Assembly: GCA_041649715.1 (NCBI GenBank)
Contig: JBAZMP010000001.1
Location: 146,741 to 210,740, forward strand
Direction: 5' to 3'
DNA length: 64,000 nucleotides
Source: Patescibacteria group bacterium
GTDB lineage: Bacteria; Patescibacteriota; Patescibacteriia; JAXHNJ01
Shown here: positions 10,333 through 20,164 of the stretch, piece by piece
How the letters are laid out: every line of letters begins with the position of its first letter
How positions within the stretch are numbered: position 1 is the first letter of the stretch
Translations under genes and position numbers: made by a program
Notes under the pieces: model-generated
The model's input: the letters and a program-made list of their open reading frames with translations, nothing else
The model's database searches: none
Told to the model about the DNA's origin: nothing

Positions 10333-10591
10333 ATTATTTCTCAAGTATAACAAAAAACCGCCGTATTGGCGATTTTTTATAACCAGCAAATATTATTTAT
10401 GAAATTTCTTGGCCTTGGCTTCTAACATAAGCCTTTTTATTTCTAGCCTCTTTTTCGTTTTGTGGGAATGTGATCTTTGCCTTCGGCCCACCGCGTGCGC
10501 TCTTTTTGCCATAAAAAAATCGTTAATAATTATTATAAGCCATTCTAGCTGATTATATCAATAAAATCAATAGCTATGAATATTTATCAAA

Positions 10592-10620
10592 AACCATTCC
10601 CTTTGAGAATGATCTGCTTG
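10592..10620 (+). repeat. Degenerate copy of the tRNA-His terminator hairpin (about 29/33 identical to 18447-18475)
   Basis: aaaccattccctttgagaatgatctgcttg compared with aaaccattccttatgggaatgatttctgatg. The hairpin cattc...gaatg is preserved through compensatory changes. Confidence 0.6.
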
Positions 10621-10804
10621 AAATCCTAATTTCTAATGTCTAATTTCTAAACAAATTCGAAATTATAAATTCTAAACTTTTTGAAAATTGTCACCCTACG
10701 GGTGATTTCCCGCAGGGAGAGAATTTCGGATTTTGGATTTGCCTTCGTCGCCGCTCAGGCCGGCGGTTTGTGATTTGGTGCTTGGGATTTGGGATTTAAG
10801 TCGG

Positions 10805-10872
10805 TGGGGTGACTAGAGGTCCCGATACTTGCGTCGCTAACGCTTCCGGGTACGGGGTAAAGATTTGCACCT
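10805..10872 (+). repeat. Scrambled partial copy of the tRNA-His 3' half (att-like direct repeat)
   Basis: tggggtgactagagg (10805-10819) is identical to 18478-18492, the tRNA-His CCA end plus acceptor 3' strand. tcgctaacgcttcc and gatttgcacc (T-loop) are also shared with the tRNA, but re-ordered. Confidence 0.65.
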
Positions 10873-10956
10873 TTTTAAAAATACGTTTCCGGCGGTGACT
10901 ACCCTTGCTAAAATCACCTTGTTGTGTGATGATAGGCAATTGTTTATAATGTCCTT

Positions 10957-12897
10957 ATGGAATCCGAAAGACTACATCATGAACACGAAAGGGCGGAAAC
11001 CGCTCCTTTTACGCCTCCGGTTGTCGAGTTGTTTTTGGATCCGTCTCGGGCGGGCGAAGTCTGGCCGGAACATATCGCAGAAAATGAGGCTTTTAAGGTC
11101 CAAATAGAGACACGCCGGGAGCTGAACGAAAGGCTTGAGACTATTTTTTCACATCTGCCCCGGCCGGATATCTCGCTTCAAGAGGCGATCAAGCAAGGTG
11201 AGATCACGGAAAGCCAAGTGGCGGATCTCTTTGCTTCATTAAACCCTTTACTTGAAGATAAGGATTATCGACGGATCGCCCTTTACCTTCCTTTTGAATT
11301 TTTCCCCGAAAAAGGGAAACCCTATTCGGAAACGCTTCAGCCGGCCGCGGATCAATTTCAGAAGGCCTATATGTCGGCCTGGAAATCACTCCTTCATACC
11401 CATGATGTGCGCGCCAACTTCGTGGACGGCGATGTTCTTGAAACAGAATCCCGCGTTACCGATCTGCCGCGGGTGGTCAAGGCCGCGCATCTGATACCGA
11501 AACTGGTTAAGCATGGTTTTCTAAAAACGGGAGACGCGATTAAGCTGATGGAAACAAGCGACGATGAAATGCTTGAGGGAAGCATCGCGGACACGCTCCC
11601 TGTTTTAGCGGACATGGGATTTATCGGAGAAGCAGAACTTAAGCGGATGAAAGCCTCTGATGAGGCATCTGCCCGCGATATGGCTGAGCATATTATTGAG
11701 GAGAAAAATAGACCGGAAAAGAAAGAGGCGGAAGGAGTTGAAACGCCGGAAATAAAACTATCATCACTTCAAGGAAGGCTCCGCGATGAATTCGATGACA
11801 TTGAGGCCGAACAATATGACCACGTGACGGAAAAAAGGGCAAACTGGCTGAGACAAGAAAAAAAACGAAAAGCTATTGAATCCGCGGGCGACGCCATCCA
11901 GTCCGCGATTGCCGGCCGGACTGTCTCTTCCGAAACGGTCGCTCAATTTGTTTCTGCCGAAGCAAATGCTACCAGCCAACAAGCGCTGGTTAATGGTCTC
12001 CGAAAAACGATTGAATCCGCGCCGCCGGAAGAAGCGAATAACATTTACAAACAATATCAGGACACTTTATTATCTCTCTGGAAAAATGAGACGCCTGAAC
12101 TTCAGGCCGAGCTGGCAAAAACTTTCTGTCGGCTGAACAAACTTGGCGTGGTGGAGGATGAGCAGCTGGCCGCCCTCGGCCTTAAGATACCCGAACTGGC
12201 CGGCCCGTTCTCAAAAAATTTAGAGACCATGAAAGAAGAAATGCATGAGGTAAGAGATATCGCCGTGGCCATAGAATCAGATCCGGAGCTGTCAAAAAAG
12301 ATTTATCCCGTGGTTTCCGTTTTCGGTTCCCGGCTCAAAGGCTACGGAGACAAGAATGCCGATATTGATGTCGGGGTGTTTGTCCGGCCGGAGACATCGA
12401 TAAGCGAGCGGGAGACTCTTACAGCTTCAATCAAACAACTTTTCACTCATGAAAAGATACAGGGAAAAGTCGTGGAATTCTGGTTGGAAGAAACTAAAGA
12501 TGGTCTCGCTGTCCGTGACTTCGGCAAGCCCGATGTGACGCTAGGCGAAAGTTATTGGACGCATGTCCTCTTTGGCGCCGCGTCAGAAGGGAACAAAAGC
12601 GCGATCCGCGAACTGCGCGAAAAACTTCTTGTTCCCTATATGAATGACCAGAAAAAAGCCATCCATGGCCGAGAGGCGCGGGGACTCTATCTTGAAGAGA
12701 TGGAACGGGATACACTGCAATATCGGCTGATGCACAAGGGTTATGAACAATTCAATCCTTCTTTTGGCGGCATAAAGACACCCCACGCCGATCTGATCGA
12801 TGGCCAAAGCGCTTTCTGGGATTCAGGCTACCGTCAGACCGCCACCAAATTGTTCGCCAGCCGGGTTTTTATCCCGAAGATTTCTCATACAAAATAA
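10957..12897 (+). CDS. Large protein with a C-terminal Pol-beta-type nucleotidyltransferase domain
   Basis: Residues ~450-470 read VVSVFGSRLKGYGDKNADIDVGVFV, matching hG[GS]x9-13DhDh. Further acidic residues follow (VEFWLEETKDG). The N-terminal ~430 aa have no recognisable motif. Confidence 0.65.
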   Translation: MESERLHHEHERAETAPFTPPVVELFLDPSRAGEVWPEHIAENEAFKVQIETRRELNERLETIFSHLPRPDISLQEAIKQGEITESQVADLFASLNPLLEDKDYRRIALYLPFEFFPEKGKPYSETLQPAADQFQKAYMSAWKSLLHTHDVRANFVDGDVLETESRVTDLPRVVKAAHLIPKLVKHGFLKTGDAIKLMETSDDEMLEGSIADTLPVLADMGFIGEAELKRMKASDEASARDMAEHIIEEKNRPEKKEAEGVETPEIKLSSLQGRLRDEFDDIEAEQYDHVTEKRANWLRQEKKRKAIESAGDAIQSAIAGRTVSSETVAQFVSAEANATSQQALVNGLRKTIESAPPEEANNIYKQYQDTLLSLWKNETPELQAELAKTFCRLNKLGVVEDEQLAALGLKIPELAGPFSKNLETMKEEMHEVRDIAVAIESDPELSKKIYPVVSVFGSRLKGYGDKNADIDVGVFVRPETSISERETLTASIKQLFTHEKIQGKVVEFWLEETKDGLAVRDFGKPDVTLGESYWTHVLFGAASEGNKSAIRELREKLLVPYMNDQKKAIHGREARGLYLEEMERDTLQYRLMHKGYEQFNPSFGGIKTPHADLIDGQSAFWDSGYRQTATKLFASRVFIPKISHTK

Positions 12898-12950
12898 AAA
12901 AATACATTAAAGTATGCCCTTTCGTTAAAGCGGGTATCTTTTGCGTATAA

Positions 12951-12988
12951 AAAAAGGGGCCAGACAACAGAGTGTCTGGCCCGGCCCA
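12951..12988. terminator. Bidirectional terminator hairpin between convergent genes
   Basis: aaaaaaGGGGCCAGACAacagagtGTCTGGCCCGGCCC forms a perfect 9-bp stem (ggccagaca/tgtctggcc). It lies between the stops at 12897 (+) and 13015 (-). Confidence 0.55.
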
Positions 12989-13014
12989 CAAAGTGGGGAA
13001 AGAACGTGAATTGA

Positions 13015-14220
13015 TCAGAGTTTGCGGCCGCCGATACCGGAGAGCCGACCGCCACGGGTTCCGCCAAGCGAATCCCAGGGAATCTGGGACCCGAGCATGA
13101 ACAGCGTACCGAAGTACTGCAGCTCTTCGTTGCCGGCCGGCTGGTCCTTCACCTGCATGACCGCCAGTACGAACCGGGTGAGGTTCGTTTCCAGCCGCGG
13201 GTAGGTGGCGGAAACCGCCACGTTCAGCTGCCGGAGCATCTGGTCGCGGTTAGCTGCCCCGATCAAGGACGGCAGACGGGGATTCTCCAGCGTCTCCTTG
13301 ATCTTGGTCGCGTCGTAGGCGACGGCGGCCGTGATCTGGACTCCGGTTCCTGCGAATACGCGGTTGACGGCGTCGGCCACGGCGTCGGCGTGATCGCGAA
13401 GCACGCCGGTGTCCGGAGGCTGCATCATACCCGGAGGCATGACGCCGGCGCTGCCGGAAGCCGCCATGATCGCACTCATCATCATCGCCGGATTGGCCGC
13501 CCCCTGCATCCAGGCTTCCTGCCAGGACTTGAGCTGGTCGTAGAAGCTGATGATCGCCGGCCACAGGTGCTCGTCGATTCGCGCGAAGAGCTTTTCCTTG
13601 CGCCCCTCGGTGACATACGAGCCGTCGAAACCAGGGATGGCTTCGAAGATCTCGGCGTAGGAACGCCTGGTCATTTGTTTCCGGAGTTTGAAGAACTCCT
13701 GATCGACTTGTTCGTCGTTCTCATCCGCGAACTTCTCCATCAGTTTCACGAGACCCTCCGGAATACTGAAGAGGCCGGCCCGGTGCGCGAGGGCCGCCCG
13801 GATCGCGGAAATGACGGTCGACTGCTCGACCTTGAGCACGCCGCCTGCCCGAAGCGCTTCCAGCCAGGAGGCGTCACTCGGGACCGACGGAAGGATGTCG
13901 AACGACATGGGGCTCATGGCGCTGGCCGCCGCCGCGGGTTCGGCCGGAGCGAGTGCCTTCAGCAGGTTTCTGGCCGGTATCTTCTTCATTCCGATGCCGA
14001 CCAGGTCTCCTTCGGTGAGGCCGGACAGATCGGCGAGCGTCTCGGCGCCGATTTCCGACTTGATCTTGGTGATCATCTCGTCGTTGACGCCCAGCTCGGC
14101 CAGCTTTGCCCCCACGGGATCAACCGTGGTGGCTGGACCTGTGTCGGCGGCCGCCGAGGCCGAAGCTTCGGCCGTTCCATCGACTGCGGGATCTTTCTTG
14201 TCCTTGTCGTCTCCGTTCAT
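13015..14220 (-). CDS. Hypothetical protein (GC-rich island gene 1): acidic/Ala-rich N-terminus and an HhH/SAP-like segment
   Basis: 401-aa ORF with strong GC skew relative to the flanks. LAELGVNDEMITKIKSEIGAETLADLSGLTEGDL resembles helix-hairpin-helix/Rho-N-like motifs. The rest has no recognisable family. Confidence 0.6.
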   Translation of the reverse strand: MNGDDKDKKDPAVDGTAEASASAAADTGPATTVDPVGAKLAELGVNDEMITKIKSEIGAETLADLSGLTEGDLVGIGMKKIPARNLLKALAPAEPAAAASAMSPMSFDILPSVPSDASWLEALRAGGVLKVEQSTVISAIRAALAHRAGLFSIPEGLVKLMEKFADENDEQVDQEFFKLRKQMTRRSYAEIFEAIPGFDGSYVTEGRKEKLFARIDEHLWPAIISFYDQLKSWQEAWMQGAANPAMMMSAIMAASGSAGVMPPGMMQPPDTGVLRDHADAVADAVNRVFAGTGVQITAAVAYDATKIKETLENPRLPSLIGAANRDQMLRQLNVAVSATYPRLETNLTRFVLAVMQVKDQPAGNEELQYFGTLFMLGSQIPWDSLGGTRGGRLSGIGGRKL

Positions 14221-14236
14221 CGATATCTCCTTTCAA

Positions 14237-15622
14237 CTACTGGAAGAGTTTGTCTCGCTCGGTCGGTCCGAACGAGACCAGGCGAACCGGAACTCCAACT
14301 CTCTCATTCAGAACGCCGGCACAAAGCGCGAATAAGTCTTCTCGCTTGGCGCCGGGTGAAAGGCCGTAGGTTGTAATCTCGGGCGTGCAGACTTGAAGTT
14401 GCTCCCCGAGGGCTTCTTGATAGGCAAGTTGTTTTGCATCGTCTCCGTATCGGACTATCAGGTTGCCAGAGGGTGAAAAGAAAGTCCGATCATCAACGTT
14501 GCGGTAACGATCGCACAGGAGCCAGGCGCCGTTGGTCTGAATTTGGTCAAACCACGTGATCGCTAGGCCATTAAACGCGGTCGGACCGCCGCAGACTTCG
14601 ATTGCATAACGAAGCAATGTCAGGTCAAGCGGACCGACACGCACTTTTCCCTGGTAGCGGTTTTTCTCCTTGTGACTGCCAGGGAGAAGATTTTCAGCCA
14701 TGGCCGGATCGAAGGTTGGCATCGGGCCGGCTCCATGACGGATCTGATAGGCTCGGGTTACCCCGAGGTTGATGACTGTTCCGCTGTAGCCGGCGTCTTT
14801 CAGCATCGCCTGCGTAAAACGCGGCAATATCCGAATGGCGCTGGTATGCGGATGGAAACCGTGGAAGCAATCGTTGAGTACTCCATGCGAGCTTTCCACA
14901 ATAACCACGCCGTCTCGGGAAAGAATTTCTCTTCCCAAGAATTCGTGGTCAACGATGGTCAGCCGTCGATTGGCTTCTTGAAGTCGCCTTAAGACGTAGT
15001 TAAGGAAATCGTCGTCGTGCAGACGTTCGATTTCTTTGGCCGCCGTCTCGCGATCCTCCGGGAGAAATTCTCCGGGAAAGACCGTGGCGAGATCTTGAAG
15101 TATCTGTTCTCGAATGGCAACCAGTTTCTCGCGCAGATCGGGCCGCTTCAGATCGCGAACGAAAAGCGCAAGTTGAGGAAATCGTTGGGCCCCACGATAA
15201 GCTTCGCCAACGCCGGTGCCGATCGTACCCCGAGGATTGTTTCTTCTCGCCATTTCTTTCAGGCGCGAAGCGATTCCGTGATACGGCGTGGCACACAGTG
15301 CTTCTTCATCCACGGTTAATAGACTAAAGGGGTCGTGAATGCCGCCGGTGTAACGGAGAGCGTCGGCTTCGTTGAGCAAGCCTTCCGGTGAAACCACCAT
15401 CCGGGACGAAATATGCGTCTTCGTCCCTTCAAATGTGCCACACCCCCACTGGCTGAACGCGAAGCGTTCGCCTCTGGAAGTTGCGACTCCGTGGCTGCCC
15501 TGGGCGCCGCCGACTTTAACGATCGTGTGCGGCTTCATCCTTGTCGAGATAGCGTGTACCACGCCACCTTTACCACCATCACCCGGACCGAGATCGGTGA
15601 CGGTGTAGACTTTTTTGGTCAT
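14237..15622 (-). CDS. Adenylosuccinate synthetase family protein (divergent PurA/PurZ-like)
   Basis: Start [23 protein letters not shown] matches the PurA P-loop [20 protein letters not shown] corresponds to [19 protein letters not shown] corresponds to [26 protein letters not shown] corresponds to [38 protein letters not shown] corresponds to TRVGAGPFPTE. The ORF-track start at 15865 is a non-homologous N-terminal extension that overlaps the upstream gene. The ATG at 15622 has an RBS. Confidence 0.8.
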   Translation of the reverse strand: [461 protein letters not shown]

Positions 15623-15665
15623 AGTCACCTTTTTCGGTTTTAGGGTGATAGGCGGAAAAAACGGC

Positions 15666-16784
15666 TTAGAGCCATTCTCCCGTTTTCTCTTCGGGATTGT
15701 CTCCCGCGGGCTTTTCTTTTCCGATCTCTTTCGGATCGACCGGCCAGAGGTCGGTCTTTTCCCGGAAGAGGTCGCCTTTGACGGGACGCTTGGAAAAGTT
15801 CGGCAGCGCCGCCTGGGCCCCGATGGGGATGTTGGCGACGGAGCGAGCGATTTTCGCGACGTCATCCTTGTCGACGTTGTGCTCTTTGAGGAAGGCGGCT
15901 ACCTCTTTGAGGCTCAGCGTTCCTTCCGTCAGCCCGATGATCGTCGCCTGCACCTGCGGCAAAAGCTCGGTGCTGGGCAGGACGACCACGCGCTCACGGC
16001 CGAAAATCTTGGTCCAGTATTGGGTGGTGCGAGATCGTTCTTCCACCTGAAGGAAAAAGGCATGCGCCCGAGTCAGGAGATCTTGTACCATCTCTTTCGT
16101 TGTCGGGAGAGACCTGATATCGAGCTGATAGCTGTTTTCCTTCACCTTTTCGAAGACTTCGTCCCCGAAAATCCGGCGGAGCTGGCGTTCATCGAGCCCA
16201 TCGTGCGCCGTGGCGTCCGAGACCGTGAAATCATAGCCTTTCAGTCCGAGGGCGCAGATGTGCGCCGCGGTCAGATAAGCGGCGCCGAAAAGTCCGTAGT
16301 GCGGATCTTCCGGTTCGTCGCCGCCGTCCCGTTCCGGCACCATCAGGGTGAGCTGTTCGACGATTTTCTCGGCGACCATCTCAAACTGCGGCCGGCAGAG
16401 CACGAATAGGTCGGTGACGTCGGCGAAGATCCCGGTGGCGATCTGAAGATCGTAGCCGGGCAAAACAAGGCTGCTTAGCTCGTGGGCTTTGGGCAGGACA
16501 CGGAGGGCGATATCTACGTTGTTACCCATGCTGCCCGTGGTGTCGACCCGGGTTTCGATAGGTATTGGCGTGCCGACTGTCAGTTCCCAAAGGCCATCCT
16601 CTCGTTTCTCAAGCCGGGGCAGGGATCGGCGGATGACGCCGAATCCTTTGGGATCGACGAGCGGATTAAGCTCGCCGGTCTCCCGCGCTTTCTGCTCGGC
16701 CCGAGCGGTGGCCGGACCTTTTTCCGGCGCGAAATGCCGAACCGATTTTGCAAAAGCATCTCGTGAAAAAGTGTCATGTCCCAT
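15666..16784 (-). CDS. Hypothetical protein, possibly vWA-like (DTTGSMG MIDAS-like motif)
   Basis: ETRVDTTGSMGNNVDIALRVL fits the vWA DxSGSM beta1 motif, with downstream Thr and Asp candidates (TGIFADVTD). The GC-rich codon usage is like that of the neighbouring island genes. Confidence 0.5.
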   Translation of the reverse strand: MGHDTFSRDAFAKSVRHFAPEKGPATARAEQKARETGELNPLVDPKGFGVIRRSLPRLEKREDGLWELTVGTPIPIETRVDTTGSMGNNVDIALRVLPKAHELSSLVLPGYDLQIATGIFADVTDLFVLCRPQFEMVAEKIVEQLTLMVPERDGGDEPEDPHYGLFGAAYLTAAHICALGLKGYDFTVSDATAHDGLDERQLRRIFGDEVFEKVKENSYQLDIRSLPTTKEMVQDLLTRAHAFFLQVEERSRTTQYWTKIFGRERVVVLPSTELLPQVQATIIGLTEGTLSLKEVAAFLKEHNVDKDDVAKIARSVANIPIGAQAALPNFSKRPVKGDLFREKTDLWPVDPKEIGKEKPAGDNPEEKTGEWL

Positions 16785-16802
16785 GCAACGCTCCTTTCTC
16801 GT

Positions 16803-17615
16803 TTAGGAATTCAACGGAAACGACGTGAACGGGTAAAACTCCCGCCGCCAGAGCCCGTCGATGAGCTCGTAGAATTTAGCGTGAGCCCGTTTTGCTTCGC
16901 GCAGATTTTCGTCCGCCAGATCCAGAAGAAAAGCGGTATATTCATTATTGTCCGGGAAAAGTCTTCTTTCGAGATCACCTCCTAGCAACGTAATAATCGC
17001 TTTCGCGACCTGCGAAATTTCGGTACCGGCTATCTCGGCCGGCACGTTTTCCGGATACAGGTGCGCTTTCGACCAGTCGTAGAACACCACGTAGTGTTGG
17101 TCCGGCTCGATCAGAATATTCGCGTCATCCAGGCGCCCGACGGCGATCCCCTGGCTGTGCGCGAACACCAGGAGTTTCAAACTCTTTCCCAGTATCCACG
17201 CGCTGGTCCGCAAGTCTACTCGGCGCCGATCGCGAACCGTGATGTTGCGTAACGGCACCATCTTGGTTACATCCTCGATTTTTCTGAAGGCGAGGATGTT
17301 GATCCAGCGCCCGCCCTGCGGCTGGCATGAGAAACTGTCTACCAGCTCAGGGAATCCCAGGCCATAATTCAGAAGAACTTTCGGATCCGTCCGCACTTTT
17401 TCATACTCCGCTTCAAGCTCATCCGCCAGGCGTTTAAGCTCTTGCAGAAGGTATGAAGAGCGGCTTAGCGGGCCGTTTTGGCTCGTTTCAGCCGCGATTT
17501 GGAGCAGGCACCGGCGTCCCGTCTTTTCCTGTTTGCACAGGTAGAGTCGGTACTCGCCGGCATCCGCCACTTGGTCGCCAACGACATAGTTGTCTAACAT
17601 TCCTTCAACAATCAT
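16803..17615 (-). CDS. Atypical protein-kinase-like fold protein (Kdo/RIO-like catalytic-loop resemblance; possibly pseudokinase)
   Basis: The N-lobe-like segment is GEYRLYLCKQ...RRCLLQIAAE. FAHSQGIAVGRLDDANILIEPD...VVFYDWSKA resembles HxDLxxxNILh plus DFG-like motifs. GGGGG RBS before the ATG at 17615. Confidence 0.45.
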   Translation of the reverse strand: MIVEGMLDNYVVGDQVADAGEYRLYLCKQEKTGRRCLLQIAAETSQNGPLSRSSYLLQELKRLADELEAEYEKVRTDPKVLLNYGLGFPELVDSFSCQPQGGRWINILAFRKIEDVTKMVPLRNITVRDRRRVDLRTSAWILGKSLKLLVFAHSQGIAVGRLDDANILIEPDQHYVVFYDWSKAHLYPENVPAEIAGTEISQVAKAIITLLGGDLERRLFPDNNEYTAFLLDLADENLREAKRAHAKFYELIDGLWRREFYPFTSFPLNS

Positions 17616-17961
17616 AGATTATCCCCCTTTCAACGGGTTGGTGGCAAAACCGAAATAAATAAAACTACTAATCAATTTGTCAAAGTACCTCCTTTTATCC
17701 CCAAATTATGGATTAAGGAGATGAATCAATGTAACATATTTATGAAAAATGTCAAGGGTTTCTAAGATTACATAAAAATAACATCAAAAACACAAAAACT
17801 CGTTCTTTAGAACATGCTTATGTGTTTGGGGTTCCGACCGTACGCTTTTTTTAACTAATTTTATGGCGGTAATAAGGGATAAACAGTATTTTCGGGTAGC
17901 CATTAAACATCTACAGATGATACAGGCGTGTTACTGGTGGGCCGCGGCTGGAAGTCTGTTT

Positions 17962-18414
17962 TTAATAATTATTTGTCTGCGATTTGAAAGAATGGGTGCG
18001 GATATTTACAATTATTTGAATGATAAATAGGGCAAGTATAATAATTCCTCCTGTTTGAAAATAGTATTTCCAGACCATAACCACAAAACCATAATTCATG
18101 GCATAGTATAGGGCCAAATAGGGTATGGCCGGCCGCCAATACTTTTTCATATTCTCACGGAAAGGAATCTTTAAAATATAGTCGTACAAAAATTCCAGAA
18201 TTAAGAAGGCTAAAAATATCCCCAAGAATATACTGTAGCGAACCGTTTTTTGTTCCTGGTGCACTAAAAAAATTCCATAAACAGCCGGAATTGCCAAAAG
18301 AAAATAAAACTTGCCCACTCGTTGCAAAATGGACATTTTTTTCCGGATTAAAAAAATGTAAATTAAGAATAGATTATTTAGAATTCCGAGCCCGAAAAAT
18401 AATTTTTCTAACAT
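17962..18414 (-). CDS. Polytopic membrane protein (hypothetical)
   Basis: 150 aa containing 4-5 hydrophobic helices. Confidence 0.55.
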   Translation of the reverse strand: MLEKLFFGLGILNNLFLIYIFLIRKKMSILQRVGKFYFLLAIPAVYGIFLVHQEQKTVRYSIFLGIFLAFLILEFLYDYILKIPFRENMKKYWRPAIPYLALYYAMNYGFVVMVWKYYFQTGGIIILALFIIQIIVNIRTHSFKSQTNNY

Positions 18415-18446
18415 AAATTATAGTTTAATCTTAATACAAGTATACC

Positions 18447-18475
18447 AAAAACCATTCCTTATGGGAATGATTTCT
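18447..18475 (-). terminator. Rho-independent terminator of tRNA-His
   Basis: Immediately 3' of the tRNA on the minus strand: CAUUCC-CAUAA-GGAAUG followed by GUUUUUG. Confidence 0.6.
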
Positions 18476-18477
18476 GA

Positions 18478-18553
18478 TGGGGTGACTAGAGGGATTTGCA
18501 CCCTCGCTAAAGCCTCCACAGGGCTCTGTGCTAACTACTACACTATAGTCACC
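18478..18553 (-). tRNA. tRNA-His (anticodon GUG), with encoded G-1 and CCA
   Basis: The reverse complement folds as a cloverleaf: 8-bp acceptor stem including G-1:C73, anticodon loop CUGUGGA, T-stem GAGGG/CCCUC, CCA encoded. Unusual features are a T-loop reading UGCAAAU (G at position 55) and a D-loop with no GG. Confidence 0.85.
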
Positions 18554-18562
18554 ATGATTGCT

Positions 18563-19150
18563 TTATTCGTTCGTTTGATGCTTGTGTTCCACCTCACGGA
18601 TTTTATTAAGAATCTCGCGCGGCAGTTCGCCGTATAATTGCTTGTCCGATTCCGTTAAACCATCTTGGAACATTTCGATTAACAGATCCCGTAAACTGCG
18701 GTATTTATACTGGATTTTTTGGGAAAGAATGCCTTTAGCCTCTTCGTCTTCTTCGCTGATTTTTTCCGCGTCCTGTCGCGTCGCTTTGACTTCTTCCATT
18801 ATATCAATTAATCTTGGTTCAAATTTTTGGTATTTTTCTTGTTCAAAAAAGTGTTCAAGATTAACCCCGACCTGGCCCGCGATATCTTCAAGAGTTTTAC
18901 TGGCGCTTAAAAGTGATTGGCGATCATAGACATTTTCCCGGACCATTTCTCTTTGAAAGGCTTGGGCGATGGGGATATATTCTTTAATTATTTCCTTGCT
19001 GTCGGGCAATAGCCCTTCTGATTTTTTCTGAATAAAAATATTAAGTTCCGTTTCTTTCTGATTAAGCTGTCCTAGCTCTTCTTCAACTTTTTCCTTCACC
19101 AAAGCATCGGACAGGGCTTTTTCTATATTGTCGTTTTCTCTTTCCGGCAT
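18563..19150 (-). CDS. Hypothetical acidic coiled-coil protein
   Basis: 195-aa ORF between the two tRNAs. It is Glu/Lys-rich and has no recognisable family. Confidence 0.55.
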   Translation of the reverse strand: MPERENDNIEKALSDALVKEKVEEELGQLNQKETELNIFIQKKSEGLLPDSKEIIKEYIPIAQAFQREMVRENVYDRQSLLSASKTLEDIAGQVGVNLEHFFEQEKYQKFEPRLIDIMEEVKATRQDAEKISEEDEEAKGILSQKIQYKYRSLRDLLIEMFQDGLTESDKQLYGELPREILNKIREVEHKHQTNE

Positions 19151-19164
19151 AAAATTTTTAATTT

Positions 19165-19239
19165 TGGTACCCTCGACAGGAATCGAACCTGTGTCCGCAG
19201 CTTAGAAGGCTGCTGTTCTATCCACTGAACTACGAGGGC
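19165..19239 (-). tRNA. tRNA-Arg (anticodon UCU)
   Basis: The reverse complement GCCCUCGUAGUUCAGUGGAUAGAACAGCAGCCUUCUAAGCUGCGGACACAGGUUCGAUUCCUGUCGAGGGUACCA folds canonically: D-stem GUUC/GAAC, anticodon stem GCAGC/GCUGC, loop CUUCUAA, T-loop UUCGAUU, CCA encoded. Confidence 0.9.
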
Positions 19240-19456: not shown

Positions 19457-20164
19457 TCAATCTAGCGGTGGTTTTCTGAAGCTTTCCGGCGTGATTTTTT
19501 GGGCAAAACCGATTTTTTTGGCGTAACCGGCCACGATCCTTTGAATAGAACGGGGGGTCAGGGGCTTCAGACTTGATTTTCCGCTGGCCCGGTCGTGACG
19601 GATGAATATAAATTCACATTTATCTTTTCTTTCATTTAGATATTCTTTTAGCCAGTAATTTCCTTGTTGGCCGAGACCCAGATCATAAAGACCTTTTCGT
19701 TTTAACCGGCAGATTTCCGAGACCTTTAATTGGGAAGAAAAAAGAAGTTCTAGGAGCAATCTGTCTCTTTTCCGGATAATGGCGGCGATTTTTTGTTCTT
19801 CCGGCGCCGCCATGATTTTTTCCAAATCTTTTCTAGACACTATCTCATTTGTTTTATTTTTCACCGGATATAGAGAAATTTTTTCGGGGTCGAGGTTATT
19901 GATATTTTCTTTATTCAAAAACTTTAAAAAAGCCCGCAAGGCGATAAGATGATAGTTCTGGGTGCTTTGATTCAGCTTGAGTCGATTGAGTCTTAGGCGA
20001 AAGGCGCGGATGGCCGGATAATTTAATTCTTCGGTTTCTGATATATCCATCAAGTCAATAAATCGGCCGAGGTAAAATTTATAGTTATTAAGGGTGGCCG
20101 GGCTTATTTCTTGTTTTTTGGCCCTTATAAAATCCGCCAATAAATTTGTTAACTCTTTTCTCAT
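19457..20164 (-). pseudogene. Tyrosine recombinase (XerC/XerD/phage integrase family), degenerate and C-terminally truncated
   Basis: An N-terminal SAM-like core-binding domain is present, followed by the LRKRDRLLLELLFSSQLKVSE region. Box I Arg appears replaced (QLKVSE). The protein ends at ...KITPESFRKPPLD, before the HxxR...Y catalytic segment, so no catalytic Tyr is encoded. Confidence 0.55.

Follow-up and report, generated by a model that had tools for sequence, protein, structure and literature searches.

Integrase-less segments bounded by copies of the tRNA-His 3′ end and its terminator in a Patescibacteria genome

The locus described here lies behind a tRNA-His(GTG) gene in a 64-kb stretch of a Patescibacteria genome, hereafter the window. 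On the minus strand, a dead Xer-like recombinase gene is followed by tRNA-Arg(TCT), the orphan gene O195, tRNA-His(GTG), a terminator hairpin (T), the membrane-protein orphan M150 and a GC-rich (guanine plus cytosine) operon of four genes. Beyond the operon lie a nucleotidyltransferase gene on the plus strand (NT646), a relic derived from the tRNA, a second copy of the terminator (T′), an open reading frame (ORF) of 39 amino acids and a SET-domain gene (Table 1). An earlier note on this DNA had described the stretch from tRNA-His to the terminator copy as one island of about 7.7 kb, with foreign cargo, integrated site-specifically into the tRNA and bounded at its far end by a scrambled repeat of the tRNA 3′ end. 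An ENA assembly (221-kb contig) contains the locus in the same order, and the junction on the tRNA side, which is also found in an independent Logan assembly, agrees in two independent assemblies; the proteins adjoining tRNA-His are identical to the entries WC528_00850 and WC528_00830 of an NCBI Patescibacteria metagenome-assembled genome.

ARAGORN and Rfam both report the minus-strand tRNA-His(GTG) gene with its CCA end and place it at 18478-18552, immediately ahead of the terminator hairpin, as the earlier note had described. The last 15 nt of the gene (TGGGGTGACTAGAGG) occur exactly, and only, at 18478-18492 and 10805-10819 in the 64 kb (0.04 expected). The further tRNA pieces that had been noticed near the left copy are likewise limited to the tRNA and the left end: a T-loop 10-mer (GATTTGCACC) occurs only at 18493 and 10862 (0.16 expected), and a 14-nt pattern (TCGCTAANGCNTCC) only at 18504 and 10834 (0.00 expected). 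Altogether, the tRNA-His region and the left end have seven words of at least 8 nt in common, with 0.57 expected. No further pieces of tRNA-His were found elsewhere in the window, and tRNA-Arg has no comparable copies there. The T loop of tRNA-His is itself unusual (TGCAAAT) and has a G at position 55 in place of the nearly universal U (pseudouridine); since the T-loop 10-mer is repeated in the relic at 10862-10871, this G55 is not a sequencing error.

To call the left copy scrambled overstates its disorder. The segment 10805-10847 is colinear with tRNA-His positions 36-76, from the anticodon loop to the CCA, with 12 of 14 matches, then a degenerate T arm with insertions and deletions, then the exact 15-nt core (15/15). 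A second partial relic just upstream (10848-10871) consists of the exact T-loop 10-mer and TTTACCCCGTACCC. The 3′ half of the tRNA is copied at the left end (p<0.001), while the 5′ half has no detectable copy (p=0.6), which argues against a pseudogene of the whole tRNA gene. The colinear copy also carries a CGGGA arm that is absent from tRNA-His; the relic sites have a CGGGACC arm in common where the resident tRNA-His has AAATCCC. No RNA family was found at the left relic, either by an Rfam gathering search of the window or by a permissive search of 10400-11100, and folding of 10585-10905 on either strand gave local hairpins only. The idea that the left relic is a conserved element upstream of the nucleotidyltransferase gene was discarded, the relic being absent from three other loci with that gene (L003, L006 and L008).

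The terminator has been copied too. Positions 10585-10613 match 18443-18471 at 25 of 29 positions without gaps (86%), and a gapped alignment gives 27 of 31; both T and T′ fold as a hairpin with a U tract (-17.0 and -11.4 kcal/mol), the stem sequence differing and the hairpin being kept. The alignments therefore bear out the description of an intact tRNA at one end and a displaced partial 3′ half with its terminator at the other. In the intact gene 1 nt separates the CCA from the terminator, compared with about 185 nt (10621-10804) in the relic. Heptads of the form AAATCC(C), similar to the T loop and T stem, occur in this spacer along with TAATTTCTAA repeats and a pair of GC-rich hairpins (GTCACCC-tac-GGGTGAT and CGCCG-ctcaggc-CGGCG); its minus strand folds better overall than shuffled sequences (z=-3.3). 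The spacer has no Rfam match and, taken alone, is not significantly similar to the 3′ half of the tRNA (p=0.15). It is possibly debris of older events.

The closest relative of the locus is L132, a 10.1-kb Logan contig (SRR22388171) whose five cluster proteins, namely those of the operon and the nucleotidyltransferase, are 73-78% identical to those of the window; at four-fold degenerate sites the two are about 54% identical. L132 reads site, aldose epimerase gene, site with terminator, promoter, cluster, relic and BacA gene, and the window, in the same shorthand, tRNA-His, T, M150, relic with terminator T3, promoter, cluster, composite relic, 185-nt spacer and T′. The distal segment, the cluster, is thus common to both, whereas the gene nearest the tRNA differs (aldose epimerase versus M150). 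Between the epimerase stop codon and the cluster promoter, L132 carries CAAATTTTTACCCTGAACCCGGGAAGCGGGGCGGGACCGATAGTCGCCCCA followed by a terminator, T″. This site is homologous to the composite relic at the left end of the window (z=7.7) and, together with T″, to the tRNA tail with T (z=9.3). The other L132 site (CGGGACCTCTGGTCACCCCA), upstream of the epimerase gene at the start of the contig, matches window positions 10805-10824 at 19 of 20 and has no terminator after it. A 20-mer that represents the site (CGGGACCTCTAGTCACCCCA) recurs at 19/20 and 17/20 at the two L132 sites and, with up to four mismatches allowed, nowhere else in 2.15 Mb of fetched loci; set against about 54% identity at four-fold sites, this means that the sites are younger than the split of the two genomes, or constrained. 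A weaker relic lies beyond the L132 nucleotidyltransferase gene (p=0.04), the promoter and leader are 73% identical to L132 1090-1296 over 213 nt (E=4e-28), and a 12-nt insertion or deletion between the arm and the A piece distinguishes the copies of the two genomes. A different gene nearest the tRNA, with homologous sites at matching positions, is as accretion at a tRNA predicts. The next-closest clusters (L134 and L135, 72-74%) have no tRNA-His-like sites, which marks the sites as derived in this lineage.

Viral contigs do not contain the site 20-mer. A viral match of the tRNA-His tail was set aside as unrelated because it concerned a phage tRNA array only; a viral contig with 15 tRNA genes (L133, IMGVR_UViG_3300049491_000083, 66-1373) has a tRNA-His with the 20-nt 3′ end of the window's.

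A further boundary lies inside the supposed island, and it was recognised because the comparison with L132 pointed there. A decayed copy of the tail (AAGCGTACGGTCGGAACCCCA, 17827-17847) is followed by the terminator T3 (17786-17816), which folds at -12.4 kcal/mol. Tail and terminator are colinear with the second site and T″ of L132 (Smith-Waterman z=6.6, p<0.001; also by blastn), and their similarity to the window's own tRNA tail and T is weak (p=0.034). The window has three places where a terminator accompanies the tRNA tail, the second L132 site is a fourth, and the terminators of all four fold. The inner boundary separates the M150 gene, the sole gene of the segment nearest tRNA-His, from the rest of the cargo. 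What had been taken for one island of about 7.7 kb thus falls into two or more segments bounded by sites, one with M150 and one with the five-gene cluster, and a third copy of tail and terminator lies between them. M150 has no family match (Pfam, PADLOC, NCBIfam, PHROG) and no tblastn match in 40 loci, and it is absent from every other locus that carries the cluster.

The cluster, by comparison, is widespread. In a comparison of L003, L006, L008 and L092-L135, its five genes stand in the same order in more than 30 distinct Patescibacteria loci, that is, in every locus with enough flank, at 45-78% identity: the kinase-like, 372-residue, PurA-like and SAM-like genes, and beyond them the nucleotidyltransferase gene, which is convergent in nearly every locus. 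Homologues of the PurA-like protein at 64-77% identity number in the hundreds, nearly all in Patescibacteria, and those of the 372-residue protein (U372) more than 1000, all unnamed. We infer that the cluster is an old Patescibacteria gene set and not a recent import from another phylum. A NUDIX/NrtR-like regulator often precedes it, and in several genomes (L130, L006, L008) genes for the biosynthesis or salvage of nicotinamide adenine dinucleotide (NAD) surround it, the order in L130 being NadB, NadA, cluster, NadE, NadK, NadD-like, PncB and PncA. A literature search on the five-gene cluster in Patescibacteria found no paper.

Composition could be taken as an argument for a foreign origin. 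GC content is highest in the window at 13-17 kb (0.56-0.63), and the GC content at third codon positions (GC3) of the operon is 0.58-0.80, compared with 0.36-0.64 for the rest of the window. However, the GC3 values of the four operon genes are 0.65, 0.70, 0.58 and 0.80 here and 0.60, 0.71, 0.58 and 0.81 in L008, and of the three other genomes checked, two (L008 and L003) have a GC3-rich cluster; L006, which is uniformly 50% GC, shows no excess. Since the excess recurs in L008 and L003, it is probably a property of these genes rather than a mark of transfer. The cluster is also present in more than 30 Patescibacteria loci, and the cargo is not demonstrably foreign. This comes near to what the earlier note had named as evidence against its island, relatives that carry the same genes between such repeats: the genes are indeed present in more than 30 loci, but between such repeats only in L132.

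Profile searches (Pfam, PHROGs, NCBIfam, PADLOC) found no integrase in 10.6-18.5 kb, in line with the earlier note, and no integrase lies beside the cluster in any of the more than 30 loci. The recombinase gene beyond tRNA-Arg is degenerate, as had been stated: the box I Arg is replaced by Lys, the HxxR motif reads ESFR (TPHxLR to TPESFR) and a stop codon precedes the position of the catalytic Tyr by about 60 residues. Judging by these lost residues, the Xer-like recombinase cannot be active. In a Buchananbacteria locus (L016, 5352-7096), the 3′ end of tRNA-His shares 12 nt with a gene for a large serine recombinase of 559 residues (Resolvase, Recombinase and Zn-ribbon domains). L016 keeps the tRNA-Arg/tRNA-His/S15/PNPase neighbourhood, with 140 nt from tRNA-Arg(TCT) to tRNA-His, and shows that tRNA-His is used as an insertion site in this phylum; as a pointer to the cognate integrase it is only suggestive.

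Across the fetched loci, a direct copy of the tRNA 3′ end of at least 11 nt lies downstream of 6 of 41 tRNA genes and upstream of 1 of 41. The same 41 genes have no 5′-end copies apart from D-arm matches in neighbouring tRNA genes and one ambiguous 11-mer. Copies of 11-23 nt are found 47-560 nt downstream of tRNA-Asn, Pro, Arg, His and Asn; the loci with short copies are L006 (221-865), L008 (6635-6805), L018 (2092-2164 and downstream), L122 (2389-2541) and L129 (15353-15613). Hairpins that resemble a T arm, and that the resident tRNA does not match, precede these short tails; a hairpin CCCG(G)TCGAATGAC(C)GGG is common to L008 and L132, and in L006 the pair of tails brackets a single dCMP deaminase gene. 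In 7 of 29 loci, the window included, co-directional tRNA genes precede the cluster by at most 1.3 kb, about 6.8-fold over other flanks; they are of the identities Ala, Asn, Ser, Trp, Gln, Gly/His and His (L003, L008, L092, L114, L120, L122 and the window); only two tRNA genes lie beyond the nucleotidyltransferase end. Among the loci with an upstream tRNA that were searched for tRNA-derived repeats at the far end (L003, L008, L092, L109, L121 and L122), no such repeat survives correction.

On balance, we lean towards tandem accretion by site-specific integration at tRNA-His, of which integrase-less segments bounded by attachment sites remain. Incoming DNA would have carried its own 3′ part of tRNA-His, from the anticodon loop to the CCA, together with a terminator, so that each insertion would rebuild a working tRNA; the previous 3′ part and its terminator would be pushed to the far side of the insert and decay there. 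Two segments would remain, with M150 next to the tRNA and the five-gene cluster behind it, and the cluster would have come to lie within the array in the common ancestor of this genome and L132. The recombinase would since have been lost from the region, which would leave the segments fixed or movable only in trans. Serial site-specific insertion is favoured because the copies comprise the 3′ part only and start at the anticodon loop, because the terminator travels with them, and because of the CGGGACC arm and the conservation of the sites beyond that of synonymous positions. The mechanism of recombination, the sequence of insertions and any past movement of the cluster are a reconstruction on these grounds. 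The integration footprint proposed before thus stands as far as the repeats are tRNA-derived, comprise the 3′ part only and recur as sites in L132; the single island does not stand, and a foreign origin of the cargo is not supported.

Several observations sit uneasily with accretion at tRNA-His. If the newest insert lies next to the tRNA, the outer copy should be the more decayed, yet it is better kept (15/15 and 27/31) than the inner one. The better preservation of the outer pair, with T closer to T′ than to T3, suggests that the outermost event was the most recent, the composite having been moved or duplicated whole, or that the outer sites were maintained. The model takes T and T′ from different sources, the element and the host, yet they are 87% alike, so that a long identity block or an origin in the same lineage is needed; nor does the model account for the 185-nt spacer with its AAATCC(C) heptads. 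The array and some 15 kb around it hold no integrase, excisionase or transfer gene, and the one recombinase nearby, besides being dead, lies on the wrong side of both tRNA genes. The cluster behaves like a resident one: it keeps its order in more than 30 loci, often among NAD genes behind an NrtR-like regulator, and no repeat from a tRNA stands at its far end. Other hosts show its GC3 excess as well, and the 10-kb L132 contig has no intact tRNA-His. Finally, neither an empty site nor an excised form has been seen, the search for an empty site having used O195 as an anchor and PNPase-anchored loci from 185,579 species (best identity 63%): with 57-63% identity in PNPase, the nearest genomes lack synteny at this locus, and only L016 keeps the tRNA-Arg/tRNA-His neighbourhood. 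For the SET-domain neighbour there is no record.

Some of these points would sit well with a simpler history, in which a single foreign island of 7.7 kb was recently acquired from a GC-richer donor and later lost its integrase. The outer repeat pair is the best preserved, in its 15/15 core as in its terminator (27/31), and the GC content of 0.56-0.63 at 13-17 kb, with GC3 up to 0.80, is the highest in the window. This is nevertheless unlikely in view of the inner boundary at 17786-17847, of five cargo proteins 73-78% identical to those of L132 in a cluster found throughout the Patescibacteria, and of an operon GC3 that is nearly the same in L008. In addition, the compositions of M150 and NT646 are quite unlike that of the four-gene operon, and the degenerate T arm and the 185-nt insert show that the copy is old. 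Site-specific recombination could also be dispensed with altogether, if units of tail and terminator had spread by duplication, unequal homologous exchange or gene conversion and then decayed. Within one genome the 87% likeness of T and T′ is easily explained in this way, the absence of a recombinase is as expected, and the heptad repeats of the spacer suggest slippage. We allow this account a small chance, no more, as it leaves unexplained why only the 3′ part is copied, starting at the anticodon loop, why an arm absent from the tRNA (CGGGACC) is conserved between two genomes, why the window and L132 have different genes in the place nearest the tRNA, and why downstream copies of tRNA 3′ ends are enriched for five different tRNAs.

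The tail copies might, rather than being scars, be functional, as tRNA-like processing or termination modules that insulate operons and are kept by selection. Sites that agree at 19 of 20 positions, compared with about 54% at synonymous sites, are what selection would produce; each window site is paired with a folding terminator whose hairpin is kept while stem sequences differ, and in 6 of 28 other loci a tRNA gene precedes the cluster by at most 1.3 kb, the 6.8-fold enrichment given above. We hold a functional role to be improbable, however: there is no Rfam match and no secondary structure conserved between the window and L132, with a 12-nt insertion or deletion between the arm and the A piece; the inner copy of the window and the far-end copy of L132 are visibly decaying; and no gene lies upstream of the left copy on the same strand for it to terminate or process. 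Least credible, and very nearly dismissed, is that the left element is an independent, decayed second tRNA-His gene and marks no insertion boundary, a possibility that the earlier note had raised against itself. Several tRNA pieces do cluster with a terminator copy there, but the 5′ half is undetectable (p=0.6), the stretch GGTGACTA at 10894 belongs to the conserved promoter region of NT646, neither ARAGORN nor Rfam reports a pseudo-tRNA, and the same partial unit recurs at the segment boundaries of L132.

If accretion at tRNA-His is accepted, the closest published parallel is the ssrA islands of Dehalococcoides, which are stacked, bounded by 20-bp repeats of the ssrA 3′ end and marked by a conserved motif beside the repeat that does not match ssrA; for 15 islands, which have no integration module, a cis-mobilizable or fixed state was proposed, and a serine recombinase, DsiB, is found in 16 islands (McMurdie et al. 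2011; PMC3146451). The two systems are alike in that segments are stacked downstream of one small RNA gene, with short direct repeats of its 3′ end and a non-matching motif beside the repeat. They differ in the target (tRNA-His here, transfer-messenger RNA there), in that no integrase is kept here whereas DsiB is found in 16 islands there, in a repeated unit that here includes the terminator, in the number of segments (two only) and in the cargo, which is a cluster conserved across the phylum here and strain-specific genes there. The locus also resembles cis-mobilizable elements (CIMEs) formed by site-specific accretion (Pavlovic et al. 2004; definitions reviewed in PMC5704250). It has attL/attR-like bounds (tRNA tail with T, relic with T′, inner relic with T3), and no integration or transfer genes were found. 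Unlike CIMEs, it has no known functional partner element or integrase (the 64 kb yielded no cognate integrase), its mobilisation is hypothetical, its host is a member of the Patescibacteria rather than a streptococcus, and its sites are partly decayed.

Islands and prophages at tRNA genes offer a broader comparison. The anticodon loop is said, after work by Williams in 2002, to be a classical crossover position for tRNA-targeting integrases, the identity block running from the anticodon or T loop to the 3′ end. The attP of phage HP1 carries a long stretch of the host tRNA operon. As in such elements, one end holds an intact tRNA and the opposite end a displaced 3′ part, copied from the anticodon loop and with downstream sequence in the repeat; unlike them, the locus lacks an integrase beside the tRNA as well as any genes of phages, plasmids or transfer, and its cargo is not sporadic. 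Integron arrays are alike in having integrase-less units that each end in a recombination site, a single insertion point and, nearby, a recombinase gene that is Xer- or integron-like (a weak NCBIfam match). In contrast to integrons, however, the sites repeat the 3′ end of tRNA-His, carry a CGGGACC arm and showed no attC-like palindrome; the recombinase gene is truncated and co-directional, with tRNA-Arg and O195 between it and the array; and the segments have promoters and terminators of their own.

The operon comprises the genes for a kinase-like protein (K270, 16803-17615), U372 (15666-16784), a PurA/PurZ-like ligase (14237-15622) and S401 (13015-14220). K270 resembles the protein-kinase catalytic core in a PDB profile, but its HRD and DFG positions are altered. 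U372 has a vWA-like fold with a DTTGSM motif (AlphaFold2 model with a predicted local distance difference test score of 65 and a predicted template modelling score of 0.70), and its Foldseek matches are the NorD VWA and integrin beta-I domains. The PurA-like protein passes Pfam PF00709 (120 bits, cut-off 27) and fails the NCBIfam PurA equivalog (86 bits, cut-off 402); its score with PHROG 1211 (PurZ), 160 bits (E=1.5e-46), lies above that with PF00709, although the profile libraries differ. It is, as judged from its sequence, a distinct paralogue. S401 has a SAM-like N-terminus. The fourth cluster gene exists in two forms (window 13015-14220, L003 11412-12395 and L006 11407-12405 were compared) that have the first 60 or so residues, the SAM-like domain, in common; their C-terminal 300 residues are 70-78% identical within a form and about 28% between forms. 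Orthologues of NT646 are 43-74% identical. PADLOC defence models gave nothing credible.

The PurA-like gene has one IMG/VR match at 56% identity, on a contig of putative viral status that also carries K270- and U372-like genes; U372 itself has no phage match. Distant U372-like genes (26-28% identity) are found on Rhodococcus and Tsukamurella plasmids. One (26%) lies on the megaplasmid pR1CP1 of Rhodococcus opacus (NZ_CP009112.1, 336-340 kb), next to a hypothetical gene, an annotated adenylosuccinate synthetase, a NUDIX hydrolase and an Lsr2 gene, a group distantly related to the core of the cluster; three other Rhodococcus plasmids and one Tsukamurella plasmid gave further matches.

The operon promoter is TTGACA-16-TACATT (17755-17728). 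A hairpin in the leader shows a compensatory change, CTCCTT/AAGGAG in the window and CTCCC/GGGAG in L132, and a second box, CTTTGACAAnT, which could be an operator or a second promoter, recurs in most loci about 60 nt before the K270 start codon. The promoter and operator region of NT646 is predicted at 10896-10950, and the sequence TGACTAyCCwTGyTAAAATCACCTTGTTGTG upstream of the gene is about 90% conserved with L132. The pattern GGTGACTA...TGCTAA...TCACC at 10894-10918 was tried as a relic of the tRNA 5′ half and rejected, as it is not significant and lies in this conserved region. A TATAAT box precedes the ATG of both NT646 and M150 by 3-6 nt (10896-10956 and 18414-18440), which suggests that their mRNAs are leaderless.

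O195 encodes 195 residues and lies 14 nt from tRNA-Arg and 10 nt from tRNA-His. Its one homologue among 5.8 billion proteins (48% identity) is on a 926-bp contig, and the gene may itself have been inserted between these two tRNA genes, which are neighbours in a relative. At the opposite end, past T′, a near-consensus promoter, TTGATA-18-TATAAT (10561-10532), stands ahead of the very basic 39-residue ORF (MAKRAHAVGRRQRSHSHKTKKRLEIKRLMLEAKAKKFHK, 10393-10512), which may encode a small ribosomal-type protein and is followed by the SET-domain gene.

Table 1. Positions of the features at the tRNA-His locus in the window.
Feature	Position	Strand	Basis and remarks
Degenerate Xer-like tyrosine recombinase gene	19457-20164	-	Outside the array, upstream of tRNA-Arg
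tRNA-Arg(TCT)	19165-19239	-	
O195 orphan	18563-19150	-	Wedged between tRNA-Arg and tRNA-His
tRNA-His(GTG)	18478-18552	-	ARAGORN; Rfam RF00005, 62.2 bits; CCA encoded; anchor of the array
Terminator hairpin T	18443-18476	-	Fold -17.0 kcal/mol, z=-4.8; 1 nt past the tRNA-His CCA
M150 membrane-protein orphan	17962-18414	-	ORF and translation; GC 33%, GC3 0.39
Inner boundary: decayed copy of the tRNA-His tail and terminator T3	17786-17847	-	Colinear with the second L132 site and T″
Operon promoter and leader of about 110 nt	17616-17755	-	Promoter scan; 73% identity to L132
Four-gene operon	13015-17615	-	Pfam, PHROG, NCBIfam; orthologues in the same order; GC 54-64%
NT646 Pol-beta-type nucleotidyltransferase	10957-12897	+	Pfam PF01909/PF18765; fifth conserved cluster gene
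Outer boundary: composite tRNA-His relic	10805-10871	-	Exact words and alignment to tRNA-His
Spacer	10621-10804	-	Between the relic CCA and the terminator copy
Terminator copy T′	10585-10620	-	86% ungapped, 27/31 aligned; fold -11.4 kcal/mol

Because Patescibacteria genomes derive from metagenomes and contain few integrases, the mobile elements and gene flow of this phylum have been little charted. A bolder idea, which we regard as a rather long shot, is that the phylum has a cassette-like system, in which integrase-less segments with a mimic of a tRNA 3′ end (including an element-specific arm) and a terminator are stacked and reshuffled behind tRNA genes by a recombinase encoded elsewhere. 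Such a system would explain why the cluster lies behind seven different tRNA genes (7/29 loci) and why short duplications of tRNA tails are common, and it would mean that even near-core modules such as the PurA-like/vWA/kinase-like/nucleotidyltransferase cluster have moved in this way. The array itself is an old, ordinary and probably immobile example of insertion at a tRNA gene. It provides concrete attachment-site sequences, the 15-nt core and the 20-mer, that can be searched for in reads and genomes, with CGGGACCNNTRGTCRCCCCA as the site sequence for a search of whole genomes for copies. The case also warns against calling islands foreign from GC content alone, the GC-rich genes being GC3-rich in two of three other hosts. 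The uncharacterised, NAD-linked and very widely conserved five-gene cluster is probably a more rewarding object for follow-up than the array itself.

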